Of a DNA stretch of 64,000 nt, positions 660 to 64,000 are shown in pieces. The notes under the pieces are model-generated. The model ran no database searches, had not been told where the DNA came from, and saw nothing but the letters and a program-made list of their open reading frames with translations. The stretch is from Sulfobacillus sp. Its GTDB lineage: Bacteria > Bacillota > Sulfobacillia > Sulfobacillales > Sulfobacillaceae. The stretch is from positions 10,939 through 74,938 of the forward strand of contig DAHWJO010000001.1 in assembly GCA_027344105.1 (NCBI GenBank), given 5' to 3'. The translations under genes were made by a program, and so were the position numbers. The number at the start of each line of letters is the position of its first letter. Position 1 is the stretch's first letter.

Positions 660-1040
660 TCATAGAGGAAAGCCGTGCACCATAGTGCCGCCGAGCGTGC
701 CGGCCCCCAGAATCGCCAAGGTGGCGGCGAGCCACAGGAGCAGAGAGGGCAGGGTATCGCGGTCAAAGTCAAAATAGAGGTAACAGGCCATGAGCCACCA
801 ACTGACGGCAAAAGCGATGTGTAGCCGCAGCACCGGGGGTGCCGCCGACCAGATTAGGGGGGACGCCGCCAAAAGCCCGGTGCCAATGGCCAAAAAGCCT
901 GTGGCAATGCTGAGCAGCAGCCCTAGCTGGATTAAAGCGGCCGGAATGGTTTTGCTGAATATCCGGGCCGTAGCTGTCAGCAGGAAGAGGACAATGGGAA
1001 AGTGAATGATGGCGGGGTGCAGATGTTGAAGAACATGCAC
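660..1040 (-). CDS. DUF2231-family membrane protein
   Basis: LHPAIIHFPIVL motif, conserved His in RLHI, GGTMVHG C-terminus; SD GAAGGAG. Confidence 0.8.
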   Translation of the reverse strand: MHVLQHLHPAIIHFPIVLFLLTATARIFSKTIPAALIQLGLLLSIATGFLAIGTGLLAASPLIWSAAPPVLRLHIAFAVSWWLMACYLYFDFDRDTLPSLLLWLAATLAILGAGTLGGTMVHGFPL

Positions 1041-1175
1041 GGCGATTCTCCTTCGTTGATATCGTTACGGTCAATTTATGTGGAGGCTTCCCGGGGTAGA
1101 CTGCGCTCCCGCGTCCAGTGAGGCAAAAATTCCTGAAATTCAAGGCAGCATGGCGCTCATTGGCCCGGAACACGC

Positions 1176-1204
1176 TTGACACCGGGAAAGGAGTACCCGA
1201 TAAT
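1176..1204 (+). promoter_or_regulatory. sigma-A promoter for rpe-cbbX
   Basis: TTGACA-17bp-GATAAT. Confidence 0.7.
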
Positions 1205-1227
1205 TAGTGAGAAAATTCACAAGGTTG

Positions 1228-1409
1228 ACCCCACGATTGAATTTAGGGGTGAAGACTGCGGGGCAAGACCCCGGCGCCTGCGGCTAAATATCCCGGCGGT
1301 GGGCGGATGTGCATATTCGCAAGCAATGATAGCATTGGGAAAAGGAGGAGCGGGAGAGGCGCTATCCCTCCCCGGCATGGATGCCGGGCTGTCCCGCGAA
1401 ACTGGATGA
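1228..1409 (+). mobile_element. Internally deleted IscB-type IS200/IS605 relic (3' end of iscB plus right-end hairpin)
   Basis: GCG GAT G/T GCA TAT TCG restores the IscB C-terminal ADGYAYS motif with a 4-nt insertion; then ...ALSLPGMDAGLSRETG* over the CCCGGCAT-GG-ATGCCGGG hairpin; degenerate ACCCC..GGGGT hairpin at 1228-1250. Confidence 0.6.
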
Positions 1410-2116
1410 AACCGACTTTAATCGCTCCATCAATTTTATCTGCAGATTTTTCTCGGCTGGGATCTGAAGTGAATGACGTCCTGGCGGGAGGGGCTGACTG
1501 GATTCATATCGACGTCATGGACGGACAGTTCGTGCCTAACATTACGATGGGGCCCGTTATCGTCCAGTCCCTGCGCCCGCAAACATCTGCGCATCTCGAC
1601 GTGCATCTGATGATCGTCCGCCCCGAACAATACATTCCGGATTTTCTCCAAGCTGGAGCGGACAGCATCTCGGTGCACTATGAATCCACACCGCACGTTC
1701 AGCGTGCGCTGGACATGATCCGCAGCGCGGGCAAGATGGCGGGGCTGGCGCTGACGCCTTCCACGCCCTTGAGCGCTGTTGATTGGGTGCTTAAAGACCT
1801 GGACTACGTGCTCATCATGACAGTGAACCCCGGGTTCGGCGGTCAGCGGTATATCCCGGCCATGTCGGATAAGGTGCAAGCACTGCGAATGAAATTGGAC
1901 GCAGCAGGATATCCGGACATTGCGATTGAAGTGGACGGAGGCATCAACCCGGACACGGCTTTTGAGGTCACCCGGGCCGGAGCCGATATTTTAGTGGTGG
2001 GCAGCGCGATTTTCGGGAAAACTGACCGGCTGTCAGCCATCCAGACCATTCAACAGCGAGCGCGCGACGGCCTGCAGGCACGTGGGGCGCAGACTGGATT
2101 GCATACAGGAATCTGA
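1406..2116 (+). CDS. rpe: Ribulose-phosphate 3-epimerase
   Basis: IAPSILSADF, HIDVMDGQFVPN, LDVHLM, IMTVNPGFGGQ, IEVDGG motifs; start moved to ATG 1406. Confidence 0.97.
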   Translation: MKPTLIAPSILSADFSRLGSEVNDVLAGGADWIHIDVMDGQFVPNITMGPVIVQSLRPQTSAHLDVHLMIVRPEQYIPDFLQAGADSISVHYESTPHVQRALDMIRSAGKMAGLALTPSTPLSAVDWVLKDLDYVLIMTVNPGFGGQRYIPAMSDKVQALRMKLDAAGYPDIAIEVDGGINPDTAFEVTRAGADILVVGSAIFGKTDRLSAIQTIQQRARDGLQARGAQTGLHTGI

Positions 2117-2161
2117 GGGGAGGGAGCGTCTAGGGCGGTAAAAGCCTGAGGATGCGCAATC

Positions 2162-3088
2162 GTGATGGAATCTCATGCGGAAAACAAGGTAGAGACGGCA
2201 GCCCTAGACTTCGACACGGTTCTGGGGGAAACGAAAGTCCTGGATATTTTGGGCCAGCTTGACCAAGAATTGGTGGGACTGGTTCCGGTGAAGACCCGGA
2301 TACGGGAGATTGCGGCCTTGCTGCTGGTGGACAAAATGCGCCGCCAACTGGAACTGTCATCGCAGACCCCGTCCTTGCACATGTCGTTTACCGGCAACCC
2401 CGGCACCGGCAAGACGACGGTGGCGATGCGGATGGCGGAAATTCTCCACCGGCTGGGCTATGTGCGCAAAGGCCACATGGTAGCGGTCACGCGCGATGAT
2501 CTGGTGGGTCAGTATATCGGGCACACCGCGCCGAAAACCAAAGAGGTGCTGAAGCGGGCCATGGGCGGGGTGCTCTTTATTGACGAAGCCTATTATCTCT
2601 ACCGGGAAGAAAATGAGCGCGACTATGGGCAGGAGACTATAGAGATCCTCCTGCAAATTATGGAAAATCAGCGCGATGATCTTGTCGTCATCCTTGCCGG
2701 ATATAAAGACCGGATGGACCGGTTCTTCAAGTCTAACCCCGGCATGCGCTCGCGCATTGCCCATCATATCGACTTTCCTGACTACTCGGCGGATGAGTTG
2801 CTGCTGATAGCCGAGCTGATGCTCGAAGACCAGCACTACAGGCTGAGCCCGGATGCCCGCACGGCGTTTCGCGCCTATCTGGAAAAGCGCATGGCCATGC
2901 CCAACTTCGCGAATGCGCGCAGTATCCGCAATGCTCTGGACCGCGCGCGCCTGCGGCAGGCCAACCGCCTGTTTGCCAGGGGCGGCCGGGTCCAGAAGGA
3001 AGACCTGATCACGATCCAGCCCCAAGATATTCTGGCGAGCCGCGTATTCAGCCAGGGAGTCCCAGACCAGGATCCAGCTCTGGGTTAA
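2162..3088 (+). CDS. cbbX: CbbX AAA+ ATPase (red-type Rubisco activase)
   Basis: [65 protein letters not shown]. Confidence 0.93.
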
Positions 3089-4330: not shown

Positions 4331-5786
4331 CTACGACTTCGCAGCCAACAGCCGCGCGGCTAAGGAGAGTCCCCTATCCATTCCAAAAGTGCCTAGCAGG
4401 AGCAGTGTGCCGCGCGGTGGCAGACGGTCCACTGCTGCCGCGATGGCTTCCGGCAGTTGGTGGTACAGTGTGCAAGCAAGGCCCAGCTGACGGGACCGGT
4501 TCATAAAGGCTGCGAGTTCTTCCGGGCGCGCCAGGTAGTCTGCCCCTAAATGCTCAACGTCGGAGTCGCTTGTTGTCACGATGACCGGCGCATAGTGCAA
4601 CGACAGGTCTCACTCAGCTAAGACCTCGGCTCTGCCCCGCGGTTTCCGCGAATGGCCGTCACCACTACTAGCGGCTGGTCAATGGCTTCCATGGTGCGCA
4701 TGACCGCGTCATAACTGCCCCGGTTCATGGCAACGTCACTGATTACGGTGTATTGTCCCATAACCAGTGTTTGCAGCCGGCGTTCGGCAGGACGGAATGA
4801 CTCCAAAGCAACTTTCGATGCAAGGGGAGGGACGCCATAGCTCCAGGCAATGCCCATGGCGGCGAGCGCATTGGAAACATTGTGCAGCCCAGGCAAGGGC
4901 AAACGGACAGTGGCCACGGAGGTCCGCCCCATGAACACGCGAAACTGCGTAGATGTTGGACCGACTTGAAGAATCTCAGCCCTGAGTTGAGCTGCCGGAG
5001 AGAGCCCATATAATATCGCGTCAGCCGCGGAGTCTCGTGCAAATTCCCTGACTGCTGCATCGTCAGCGTTCAGCAGCACGATGCTGTGAGAAGAAAGAGA
5101 CTGGACAAATGCTCTTTTTACCGCACGGTAGGCTCCAAAGTCACCGTGAAAGTCCAGGTGGTCGGGGGTCACGTTGGTCACCGCTGCCGCAGCAAACTCC
5201 AGGCCACCGATCCGGTTCAGGGCAATGGCATGCGAGGATACCTCCAAGATCGCATCCGTTGCCCCCCGCTCCGCTGCCGCCCGCAAAAATCTATGGATAT
5301 GCGGCGCTTCGGGAGTGGTCATGGAAGGGCGGTGGGCCGGGCCTGCTCCTTCCACCGCGTTGGTGCTCCAAAAAGCGACCGTCTGCCCCTAAGTACGCAG
5401 CATGGCGGCCAGCATGTAGACCGTCGTAGTTTTGCCGTTAGTGCCCGTGATTCCTGCCAGCCGAAGTTGGCGCGCCGGATGTTGGTAGAGCCGGGCCGCG
5501 ATCTCAGGCAGAACAGCACGGGGCTCGGCTACAGCCAGGCCGGCAAGGCGGGGGGGAGTGAGAAGGAATGTGACGGCATTTCAGGCATCAAAACAGCATG
5601 GGCGCCGTTGGCCGCGGCTTCCGCTACATAGTCGGCTCCACAGTGATGTTGGCCCGACAAATCTACAAAGAGGCTGCCAGGGACAGCCTGCCGTGAATCC
5701 CAACAGATATCCGTGATGGTGGCACTGGACCAAGGTCCAAAGCGTTGTCCTGGAATTCCTGCGGTCAACTCGGCCAACGTCGTCAT
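4331..5786 (-). pseudogene. Decayed MurE-like Mur ligase
   Basis: DSRQAVPGSLFV, GITGTNGKTTT, EVSSHAIAL, TNVTPDHLDFH motifs; broken by frameshift ~5531, in-frame TAG 5391-5389, frameshift ~4625, TGA 4612-4610. Confidence 0.9.
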
Positions 5787-8764: not shown

Positions 8765-8793
8765 TTGATTTTTCACGGGCTTCGTGGTACCTT
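8765..8793 (+). promoter_or_regulatory. sigma-A promoter of rplJL
   Basis: TTGATT-17bp-TACCTT with TGn. Confidence 0.55.
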
Positions 8794-8797
8794 TATT

Positions 8798-8913
8798 GCC
8801 GAACCCAAGACAGTGGGTGCCGGTCTCGGCTCAATATCCCGCTTAGGTAGAATTTCGGAGATGTTTTTTTGCTGAGCATATCCTCTGCCGTTCTTGGGTG
8901 GAGGTATTTTTTT
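8798..8913 (+). promoter_or_regulatory. L10 leader with attenuator
   Basis: AAGACAGTGGG..TCAATATCCCGCTTAGGT core; ACCCAAGA can pair with TCTTGGGT; terminator stem CCTCTGCC/GGTGGAGG followed by a T-run. Confidence 0.8.
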
Positions 8914-8932
8914 GTTTAAGGGGGGTGAATGT

Positions 8933-62932: not shown

Positions 62933-63566
62933 CGGTCTTGGCTCCTTTCCGTATATTATAACTCGCATTTCGGTGCGCCAAGCAAAGCTGACCATTGCGG
63001 TGCGCTGCAACTCCGTTCTCCGCACGGATTAGCCCTCCACGGAGAATCGGGTTTTGAATGCGCGTCGCGACCGCCAGACCAAAAACTGCTCAATAATAGG
63101 TTAAAATTTGATGGCTCCTAACGCAATCAGAATTGCTCGCGGTTCTCGGCAGCAGCATAGTACGCTCTCTTACCTGCTCAATACTTGTAACCAACAACAA
63201 ATTCTCACGTTATTTCTAATATATCAAGATGTTCGTGACGGCGGACGTGCTCTTTTCGATGCACGGTGTGAAGGATGGAGGTTGTAACTGAGCGCCTGGG
63301 CTCGGATTAAACGGATCATGACGAAGACGTTGGCATCGCACCATCAGTATTTGAGTGCCTGGTTAGGGTATCGCAAGCGTTATTCTTCGAATGACCAACA
63401 TCTCATTCCCCCGTCGCCACCACGTGGCGAAAGGAGCGACGGGGCATCTTGACGAGGGCCGGGTAACACCCGGGCCGAGGGCACCACCAGACGGACACCA
63501 GGACGGTCAGCCGTTCTCTTCTCCGTCTGGGCTCCTCGGCGGTGAGCTTTCTAACCAGGAGCAGTC

Positions 63567-63917
63567 ATGACAGGAGTATTTTGTCCCAAATATCGGCGAC
63601 CAGTGCTGATCAACGGAGTCGATACGCGACTGAAAGAACTACTCCACACCAAAGCGCATGAACTCCAGACCGCCATCATGGACATGGACGTCATGCCCGA
63701 TCATGTGCATCTCCTCATTCAATGCGACCCGCAATTCGGGATTCATCGGGTGGTCAAACAACTGAAAGGCTATACGTCCCATGTTCTTCGTCAAGAGTTC
63801 CCATCACTGAAACGCCGATTGCCATCGCTTTGGACGAATTCGTATTTTGTGGCCACCGTCGGTGCGGTGCAACTCGATGTAGTCCAGCGCTATATCGAGG
63901 ATCAGAAAGGACAATAA
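63567..63917 (+). CDS. tnpA: IS200-type Y1 HUH transposase, N-terminally truncated
   Basis: FCPKYRR, DHVHLL (HUH), LKGYTS, LWTNSYF, YIEDQK. Confidence 0.92.
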   Translation: MTGVFCPKYRRPVLINGVDTRLKELLHTKAHELQTAIMDMDVMPDHVHLLIQCDPQFGIHRVVKQLKGYTSHVLRQEFPSLKRRLPSLWTNSYFVATVGAVQLDVVQRYIEDQKGQ

Positions 63918-63919
63918 GC

Positions 63920-64000
63920 ATGCGCCAGTCGTGTAAATATCGTCTGTACCCCAATAAGGCACAGCAACAGATAATCGAGGATCCGTTGGAACACTGCCGG
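63920..64000 (+). CDS. tnpB: TnpB (RNA-guided endonuclease family), partial
   Basis: MRQSCKYRLYPNKAQQQ resembles the TnpB HTH start; runs off window. Confidence 0.75.
   Translation, partial: MRQSCKYRLYPNKAQQQIIEDPLEHCR

Follow-up and report, generated by a model that had tools for sequence, protein, structure and literature searches.

A left-end stub of an IS200/IS605 element, likely of the IscB-encoding kind, next to the start codon of rpe in a Sulfobacillus-like bacterium

In a 64-kb stretch of DNA from a Sulfobacillus-like bacterium (64 000 nucleotides, called the window in what follows), the ribulose-phosphate 3-epimerase gene rpe, the first gene of an rpe-cbbX operon, is directly preceded by the remnant of a transposon end. 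The data presented here support the assignment of this remnant as a stub of the left end (LE) of an IS200/IS605 family element of the IscB-encoding kind, with the IscB cargo being likely but not certain. Its identity and insertion history, taken together, we regard as very well founded. The fuller account, in which the stub landed between the native Shine-Dalgarno (SD) sequence and the ATG of rpe, and a GGAGG carried by the LE came to serve as a makeshift SD bridged by RNA structure, is on balance the one we favor. The features on which the argument rests are as follows (positions are those of the window).

1305..1405, + strand: decayed 3' end of an iscB frame (GCAYSQ...ALSLPGMDAGLSRETG), from tblastn and a profile of IscB C-termini
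1327..1405, + strand: LE terminal module of the IS200/IS605 family, short form without hairpin H1 (GATAGC...GGAGG-P1-(H1 missing)-GCGCTATCCCT-hairpin-P1'-tail)
1344..1348, + strand: GGAGG, forming the core of SD-like AAAGGAGG (1341-1348) and adjoining P1 at its 5' base, from the sequence
1406..1410, + strand: ATGAA (TTCAT on the - strand), transposon-adjacent motif (TAM), holding the rpe ATG (1406-1408) and the TGA of the iscB frame (1407-1409)
1406..2116, + strand: rpe, 236 aa, from Pfam (PF00834, E = 7.8e-81) and the N-termini of homologues

RESULTS

The relic resembles the 3' end of iscB genes

The open frame that closes at TGA 1407-1409 reads ...AVGGCAYSQAMIALGKGGAGEALSLPGMDAGLSRETG*. A first-pass annotation of this DNA had named it the end of an iscB gene, and in substance this was right. 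When positions 1325-1425 were compared with plasmids by blastn, 34 records matched, the best one with 88.5% identity over 52 nt (window 1359-1410, E = 2e-9). In the Cupriavidus basilensis plasmid pRK1-2 (L093) the matching segment is the extreme 3' end of an annotated iscB, the product of which ends in ...RGDGYGYSLVAQSTKESGHRGDASRRALSLTGLKADVSRAN*; a HEARO omega RNA lies directly 5' of this iscB (861-1091, 114.5 bits) and served as positive control for the Rfam searches. In Acidithiobacillus caldus (L095) the match is located about 50 nt 3' of a gene with an RRXRR domain (IscB-type), and Pseudomonas plasmids contain it as a relic without a gene, which reads AALSLPGMNAGVSREN*.

Protein-level comparisons pointed the same way. 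A profile built from 100 IscB C-termini was run against the six-frame translation of the window, and the relic frame was the top match (E = 0.0024, last 16 residues). With the IscB protein P0155 as query, tblastn aligned 1305-1397 across the GYGYS motif with 17 identities in 35 residues, which at E = 0.074 is marginal. This alignment (GYGYS...ALSLPGINAGVSR) pairs GYGYSFNMDSNISAGAGHASRAALSLPGINAGVSR with GCAYSQAMIALGKGGAGEA----LSLPGMDAGLSR and contains one in-frame gap of four residues, which falls exactly where the hairpin H1 (HASRAA, see below) is missing. The IscB frame is thus uninterrupted in the alignment, and the 4-nt repair (ADG[Y]AYSQ) that had been proposed for it is unnecessary. When metagenome contigs (mine drainage) were placed on window positions 1000-1600, the depth over 1341-1410 was about 6100x vs 37x, a roughly 170-fold rise limited to this interval, to which many short contigs with unrelated flanks contributed.

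The 77-aa ORF of the relic, used alone, found no match in Pfam, PDB or a word-indexed protein search. A phmmer search of 1.84 billion representatives with the relic peptide gave only two hits, which were rejected since their scores were inflated by repeats in unrelated proteins. Searches with this single sequence were uninformative because the relic is too short; similarity at the DNA level and the family profile worked.

The terminal module ends in front of the start codon

Hairpin scans of metagenomes and viral contigs yielded 33 further copies of a module of ~90 nt, so that it is represented by dozens of copies in plasmids, viral contigs and metagenomes. The module alignment comprised 34 copies with 32 distinct sequences, counting in the window and a sister strain (L081), which has an Rpe protein 98% identical to that of the window and also carries the relic. 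The module consists of (GATAGC)...GGAG(G), the 5' arm of helix P1, hairpin H1, GCGCTATCCCT, the hairpin CCCCGGCATGAATGCCGGGG, the 3' arm of P1, a tail of 7-10 nt and AT[GA]A. H1 encodes the conserved HASRAA of the IscB tail. The window and L081 have the short form that lacks H1, and other short-form copies are present in the same metagenomes.

In some copies (L093, L104 and L107) the module is the end of iscB. In others a full-length divergent tnpB starts ~110 nt away on the opposite strand, which identifies the module as the LE. Near-identical elements (L144, L150, L217, L218, L221 and L231) diverge right after ...GAACG|ATGA, and there are copies with ATAA in place of ATGA. Because the copies diverge after AT[GA]A, AT[GA]A(A) must belong to the target, outside the element; on the top strand the motif reads T[CT]AT / TTCAT. 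Meers et al. 2023 (PMC10055086) report TTCAT as the TAM of GstIscB, located 5' of LE, and describe the right end (RE) as the boundary of the omega RNA upstream of iscB. It follows from the position of the target motif that the window element ends at 1405, that 1406-1410 is native target sequence and that the iscB frame takes its stop, TGA or TAA, from the motif. In this IscB group (L093 2546-2548, L234, P0123-P0221) there is no stop within the element and the frame ends on the TGA/TAA of ATGA/ATAA; these cases show that an IscB reading frame can be closed by the target motif itself. The opposite assignment, with GATGA as the element's own end bringing the ATG along, was ruled out because the TnpB-type copies reveal this end to be the LE and because the TAM lies outside the LE (Meers et al. 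2023).

A separate IS605-type element is present at the end of the window (63567-64000, + strand), with tnpA at 63567-63917 (Y1_Tnp, E = 1.8e-37) and a tnpB starting at 63921 (MRQSCKYRLYPNKAQQ...) that runs off the window. The hairpin upstream of this tnpA, CCCCGTCGC...GCGACGGGG (~63410-63444), is unlike the one in the rpe relic. The 20-nt hairpin CCCCGGCATGAATGCCGGGG was also encountered in several repeat classes beyond the LE module (metagenome loci L096-L215, e.g. L098, L105, L108 and L126). One class has the form GTCAACCCCTCGACT + hairpin + CTTGTTCGGGGTTAAC and resembles the 5' end of HEARO/omega RNA, i.e. the RE of IscB elements, and others are REP-like arrays (L113, L145). In the Cupriavidus locus (L093), a match to group II intron D1-D4 (4598-4749, RF02001, 55.4 bits) lies about 2 kb downstream of the IscB element and adjoins a tyrosine recombinase gene.

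Origin of the stub

Several observations weigh against IscB in particular. No iscB body was detected: the profile of the last 140 IscB residues, full-length tblastn and Pfam gave nothing beyond ~16-35 residues. The window gave no Rfam match to HEARO/omega RNA (RF02033), at the relic locus no family of Rfam matched even at E up to 10 in 1000-1500, and no RE was recognized, 1256-1300 being dissimilar to RE/HEARO 5' sequences and the left junction undefined. The last ~85 nt are common to elements carrying TnpB, and IscB coding further upstream is marginal (the above E = 0.074, and z = 2.7). The 64-kb window contains no second copy of the relic, and the module copies from these metagenomes could not be linked to the window's organism.

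The stub might instead come from a TnpB-carrying or a gene-less miniature element of the palindrome-associated transposable element (PATE) type that shares this LE, an origin that we regard as rather unlikely. Divergent-tnpB elements (L144, L221, L100) do have the last ~85 nt in common with the relic, the 'ALSLPGMNAGVSR' frame is non-coding in tnpB-carrying elements, and H1-less short forms exist as separate copies in the same metagenomes. However, the alignment with IscB is collinear across GYGYS and its gap coincides with the missing H1 (HASRAA), upstream DNA similarity is highest with the IscB-type L093 (z = 2.7), 1263-1340 is not repeated in metagenomes, and near the relic neither a TnpB N-terminus on the opposite strand nor other pieces of iscB were found. 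Chance resemblance of a GC-rich leader hairpin without any transposon ancestry would agree with the failure of the Pfam, PDB, word-indexed and phmmer searches and with a fold z-score near zero, but it is already refuted by the 52-nt DNA matches (E = 2e-9) in unrelated phyla, the dozens of copies whose conserved flanks stop at the same motif, and the ~170-fold rise in read depth over exactly the relic stretch.

Sulfobacillus relatives carry the empty site

The Rpe of the window is 84% identical to that of Sulfobacillus sp. hq2 and 82% to that of S. thermotolerans, indicating a Sulfobacillus-like host, and the window DNA was seen again in mine-drainage and related metagenomes. No record identical to the Rpe or CbbX protein of the window was found. 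Relatives were retrieved via homologous proteins; a scan of genome contigs for rpe gave, among the matches listed, relatives at up to 60% identity. All Sulfobacillus loci examined have the same gene order (two small membrane genes, rpe, cbbX, ..., secE-nusG-rplK). Their upstream regions could be aligned with that of the window, in which three segments are distinguished.

1176..1204, + strand: promoter-like site of rpe-cbbX, TTGACA-17 nt-GATAAT, 11 of 12 matches, -10 box at 1199-1204
1205..1222, + strand: palindrome-like motif TAGTGAGAAAATTCACAA, 18 nt, 3' of the -10 box and over the predicted transcription start site (TSS), from invariant alignment columns
1233..1326, + strand: lineage-specific leader, absent in relatives and hypervariable between strains

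The comparison of rpe upstream regions that the first-pass annotation had suggested revealed five Sulfobacillus lineages without insertion. In these the promoter and the operator-like motif are kept, the leader is short, and the start region has the form AAAGGAGG-nnGCG-ATGAAAC. The invariant motif is followed by 24-45 nt and then by a strong SD at a spacing of 5 nt (AAAGGAGG-CTGCG-ATGAAAC, AAGGAGG-TTGCG-ATGAAAC and AAAGGAGG-TAGCG-ATGAAAC). The window and L081 have ~170 extra bases at the same place. As GCG|ATGAAAC is already present in relatives that lack the insertion, the relic was not the source of the start codon, and the earlier statement that the transposon end supplies it does not hold: ATGAA is a native TAM outside the element. 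A different reconstruction, an ancestral AAAGGAGG-A-GCG after which 53 nt were inserted, was discarded because other copies place GGAGG-GCGGGA within the LE module.

The following insertion history would account for these observations. In elements of this design iscB is read from RE toward LE, its last ~25 codons being the LE and its TGA stop lying outside, in the target motif. Such an element would have integrated in the rpe-cbbX leader, co-oriented with transcription and immediately 5' of ATGAA, at a point between the strong native SD and the ATG, by which the native SD was displaced and the start codon remained native. Co-orientation with the rpe promoter is as expected, since, according to the literature on these elements, their guide RNA depends on read-through transcription. 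Everything but the LE stub, namely the RE, the omega RNA and the bulk of iscB, would have been lost later; the stub would span 1327-1405, probably beginning at ~1305.

The start codon of rpe has no Shine-Dalgarno sequence at normal spacing

ATG 1406 is the real start of rpe, as the Sulfobacillus homologues open with MK(R/P)xLIAPSILSA. The anti-SD duplex energy at this ATG is +0.1 kcal/mol, i.e. there is no SD at normal spacing, as had been noticed in the first pass. By comparison, the median over 55 ORFs of the window is -9.9 kcal/mol with 87% at or below -6, and the rpe genes of five relatives have values of -11 to -12.6 kcal/mol. The sole strong SD-like run in the vicinity is AAAGGAGG at 1341-1348, 57 nt 5' of the ATG. 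The first-pass annotation had correctly located this run, the end of the frame, the ATGA at 1406-1409 in which the TGA (1407-1409) overlaps the rpe ATG (1406-1408), and all stems described in the next section. In the L081 homologue (98% identical) the gene caller placed the start at an internal GTG; such mis-starting is attributable to displacement of the native ribosome-binding site (RBS). As a possible remnant of that native RBS, AGGGGTGAAGACTGCG at 1244-1262 offers a weak lead.

In both relic-bearing strains, rpe is under purifying selection: between the window and L081, 17 of 23 differences fall in third codon positions (codons 1-215). From this it follows that the gene is expressed. A metatranscriptome contains rpe and cbbX of a related strain; the metatranscriptomes do not cover the rpe leader and hence give no evidence on the TSS.

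The three-helix fold and a possible structure-bridged Shine-Dalgarno sequence

Two structural features compete in the RNA between the SD-like run and the start codon.

1350..1397, + strand: three-helix fold, from the minimum free energy (MFE) structure of 1330-1420; it includes the subterminal hairpin that marks the ends of the family
1367..1371, + strand: CCUCC inside the invariant TATCCCTCC, competitor for GGAGG (SD-sequestering helix), from ensemble folding

The fold is made up of P1 (GCGGGA 1350-1355 / TCCCGC 1392-1397), a small hairpin (GAGG 1356-1359 / CCTC 1367-1370) and the subterminal hairpin (CCCGGCAT 1371-1378 / ATGCCGGG 1381-1388), which is near-invariant in the family. Across the family, each H1 pair shows 3-9 double compensatory changes and the short SCGC/GCGS helix shows eight, and P1 occurs in variants such as GCGGGAA/TTCCCGC and GCGAGAG/CTCTCGC. 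The three-way junction is therefore to be viewed as the inherited LE end structure of the transposon family.

AUG 1406 presumably still initiates rpe, and GGAGG 1344-1348 would act as its makeshift SD whenever the LE RNA closes P1, which brings it to ~9 nt from the AUG. The geometry is GGAGG + 1 nt + P1 ... P1' + 8 nt + AUG, and with 1350-1397 looped out the predicted SD duplex has -11.8 kcal/mol at ~9 nt. The same GGAGG-P1-AUG layout is found in L094, L144, L151 and L156. We hold this bridging step, which is based on folding models, only tentatively, as a number of results speak against it. The fold has no excess of stability over dinucleotide shuffles (z = -0.12 for 91 nt, -0.81 for 75 nt). 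In the 240-nt untranslated region (UTR) the window and L081 give P1 pair probabilities of 0.12 and 0.03, respectively, compared with 0.5 and 0.93 for GGAGG:CCUCC, and the MFE structure of L081 is the SD-sequestered fold. Of the changes seen between the two relic-bearing strains, which are the only ones, C1351-to-U in L081 is in line with bridging, preserving the P1 pair as G.U, and G1391T favors the rival, sequestered fold. The relic differs from L081 by 3.8%, the third codon positions by 5.5-7.9%, too few sites to show constraint. Finally, the GGAG seen family-wide may just serve to pair with the invariant CCCTCC when the transposon DNA forms its structure.

Given the competing GGAGG:CCUCC fold, translation of rpe is probably weaker than in the relatives and dependent on structure. 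The first-pass proposal of a split RBS joined by a three-way junction stands as far as the local MFE structure and the spacing of ~9 nt are concerned and is weakened in that the stability is that of shuffled sequence and the conformer is a minority one. Likewise, in the proposal of a domesticated control element the identity of the relic was borne out, and the control was not: the fold is inherited, and conservation of the relic between the two strains does not detectably exceed that of synonymous sites.

Instead of bridging, the relic may be inert or mildly harmful, with AUG 1406 being used without any SD through an unpaired A/U-rich start and rpe being made at a lower rate. This possibility we rate as doubtful, though a serious one. 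The +0.1 kcal/mol at 1406, the mostly sequestered GGAGG, the AUG being unpaired in local folds (P >= 0.94) and the relic's lack of detectable extra conservation all agree with it. On the other hand, SD-less initiation would be unusual for an organism in which 87% of the window ORFs have a well-placed SD, the AUG is partly paired in the 240-nt context (P unpaired 0.07-0.3), and rpe is under purifying selection.

Copies of the module adjoin gene starts

Of the 22 distinct copies for which sufficient sequence was available, 15 have an ORF of at least 58 codons that begins with the ATG of the target motif, whereas the background, calculated from ATGA sites within the same loci, is 41% (p = 0.01). 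Alignments to the DUF488, GcrA, DUF1833, NlpC/P60 and DUF1064 domains set in at profile positions 1-11 and among the first residues of such ORFs, which marks these as real genes starting at the motif, and two junction ORFs open with typical signal peptides. Annotated coding sequences begin at the junction in three plasmids, one of them encoding a lipoprotein, and rpe of the window is a further case. Gene starts at the junction were noted in L100, L104, L107, L128, L156, L216, L218, L220, L221, L226, L233 and L235; the genes are mutually unrelated, and their starts coincide with the motif far more often than would be expected of random ATGA sites. Nine copies have a GGAG(G) in the LE tail at a distance of 6-7 nt from the TAM ATG, and 15 of 32 distinct copies have one at the base of P1, 5-7 nt to its 5' side.

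These observations raise the possibility that the LE family is built to live at start codons, and that the rpe stub is the fossil of a translation-compatible insertion whose LE-borne SD is still serving. In favor of this reading, the TAM TTCAT/ATGAA amounts to a start codon followed by AA, and iscB, lacking an internal stop, ends on the TGA of the TAM, with the ATGA overlap coupling it to the host gene. In addition, a GGAG(G) that faces outward is present in the LE, placed 6-7 nt ahead of the TAM ATG in some copies and at the foot of P1 in others, where folding would leave 7-8 nt to the ATG. We nevertheless consider this reading unlikely. Insertions at start codons may instead merely survive better, with GGAG as the partner of the invariant CCCTCC, and the small sample does not separate this view from adaptation to start codons. 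If it were true, insertions between SD and ATG would be nearly neutral, and the element would sit behind an active promoter, as needed by the IscB omega RNA.

A possible upstream start or coupled translation

Another reading places the start of Rpe upstream of ATG 1406.

1307..1309, + strand: upstream ATG in frame with rpe, no stop in between, adding 33 residues, preceded by SD-like GGCGGTG

Initiation here would give Rpe an N-terminal extension of 33 residues, and the translating ribosomes would melt the relic structure. In the window as in L081 the frame is open over 1307-1406, all strains seen have either ATG or GTG as the codon (GTG in strains other than the window's), and GGCGGTG lies 5 nt upstream with -9.5 kcal/mol, about the window median. 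The SD-like run is lost in L081 (-2.0 kcal/mol), though, its flanks are the most variable part of the leader, all homologues begin at the MKxxLIAPS position, and the extension would be junk sequence from a non-IscB frame. This start is accordingly judged improbable.

Lower still stands the complete reading of the first-pass annotation, that a domesticated IscB end provides the start codon together with a split RBS, or couples rpe to the mini-ORF 1326-1409, and in this way controls the translation of Calvin-cycle genes. It had the identity of the relic, the ATGA overlap and the distant SD right, and the three-way junction is the local MFE structure. Against it, ATGAA is native and present at empty sites, the junction is inherited, unexceptional and a minority conformer, and the relic bears no sign of selection. 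Coupling to the mini-ORF is unlikely because ATG 1326, the one ATG that this frame has in the transcript, lacks an SD (-1.4) and reads ACG in L081; stop/start coupling of this kind would have applied to the intact iscB.

Promoter, leader and neighboring genes

The promoter hexamers are conserved across all Sulfobacillus relatives, and from them the TSS of rpe-cbbX is predicted at ~1211. The invariant motif GATAATTAGTGAGAAAATTCACAAGGTT is retained in all Sulfobacillus loci examined, with the surrounding leader free to vary. Positions 1205-1222 fit TTGTGAA-N4-TTCACAA, which we take to be a pattern of the Rex/CRP type of operator, with two mismatches, and are the sole such site in the window. The motif thus looks like an operator, a candidate judged from its pattern and conservation, and leads to the idea of a putative redox- or cAMP-type regulator of rpe-cbbX.

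The leader at 1233-1326 is the stretch most variable between the window and L081, with 13.8% substitutions plus indels compared with 3.8% in the relic and 3.2% in rpe. The indels include one of 7 nt relative to L081, and contigs of other strains show 6 nt inserted after 1246 and lack 22 nt at 1270. Positions 1233-1326 showed no similarity to copies of the insertion sequence, to RE or to HEARO, and no homologue of them was found anywhere.

2162..3088, + strand: cbbX, AAA+ Rubisco activase type, downstream of rpe in the same operon, from Pfam (AAA, AAA_lid_6) and conserved synteny

The start of cbbX is ambiguous (window 2152-2165): it may be GTG 2162 or ATG 2165, with only a weak SD-like GAGGA (-5.6 kcal/mol), and it has been called differently among relatives (products of 300-314 aa). 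Farther downstream, at 8786-8919 (+ strand), a ribosomal protein L10 leader (RF00557, 51.7 bits) precedes rplJ, as expected in a ribosomal cluster.

DISCUSSION

The closest known counterparts of the relic are IS605-family IscB elements such as ISGst5 of Geobacillus stearothermophilus (PMC10055086). They share with it a TTCAT TAM 5' of LE, the direction of iscB from RE (the omega RNA side) to LE in co-orientation with host transcription, and ends, with a subterminal hairpin, that are common to IscB and TnpB elements. Unlike them, the relic retains only ~80-100 nt of the LE side, without omega RNA, iscB body and RE, and it is found in a Sulfobacillus-like acidophile host where the TAM is the start codon of a gene. 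An iscB stop codon in the TAM or an LE abutting start codons was not found in the sections consulted of Meers et al. 2023 (PMC10055086).

The bridged arrangement has a precedent in bacteriophage T4 genes 38 and 25, which have a split RBS with spacings of 5 and 11 nt (PMC3014915, citing Nivinskas 1999 and Malys & Nivinskas 2009). In rpe, as in these genes, the SD is too far away linearly and folding could give a working distance, here ~9 nt. The two cases differ in several respects: 57 nt and a three-helix junction in rpe vs 22-27 nt and one hairpin in T4, and a structure that is imported by a transposon and predicted only, with a competing SD-sequestering fold favored thermodynamically.

Hybrid or outward promoters of IS1, IS2, IS10 and ISAba1 alter the expression of adjacent genes. 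Like these, the relic would be a transposon end that provides or replaces expression signals of its neighbor, but the signal would be translational, an SD-like run plus a fold, and the promoter is native and conserved. Palindrome-associated and REP-like elements are derivatives of IS200/IS605. They have the same kind of subterminal hairpin as the relic, which differs from them in being a single copy of one end, with no second copy in 64 kb. Palindrome-associated transposable elements are also mentioned in PMC10055086.

The insertion explains how a conserved gene of the Calvin cycle and the pentose-phosphate pathway lost its RBS in one Sulfobacillus lineage, and it makes the locus a dated natural experiment in SD displacement with sister species as empty-site controls. 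The part most worth following up is the start-codon habit of the LE family. Judging from the copies examined, IS200/IS605 elements that have a TTCAT-type target may often be located exactly at gene starts. If this pattern holds genome-wide, it would bear on how OMEGA elements choose, or survive at, their insertion sites, on the read-through transcription that supplies OMEGA guide RNA, and on the expression of the genes downstream.

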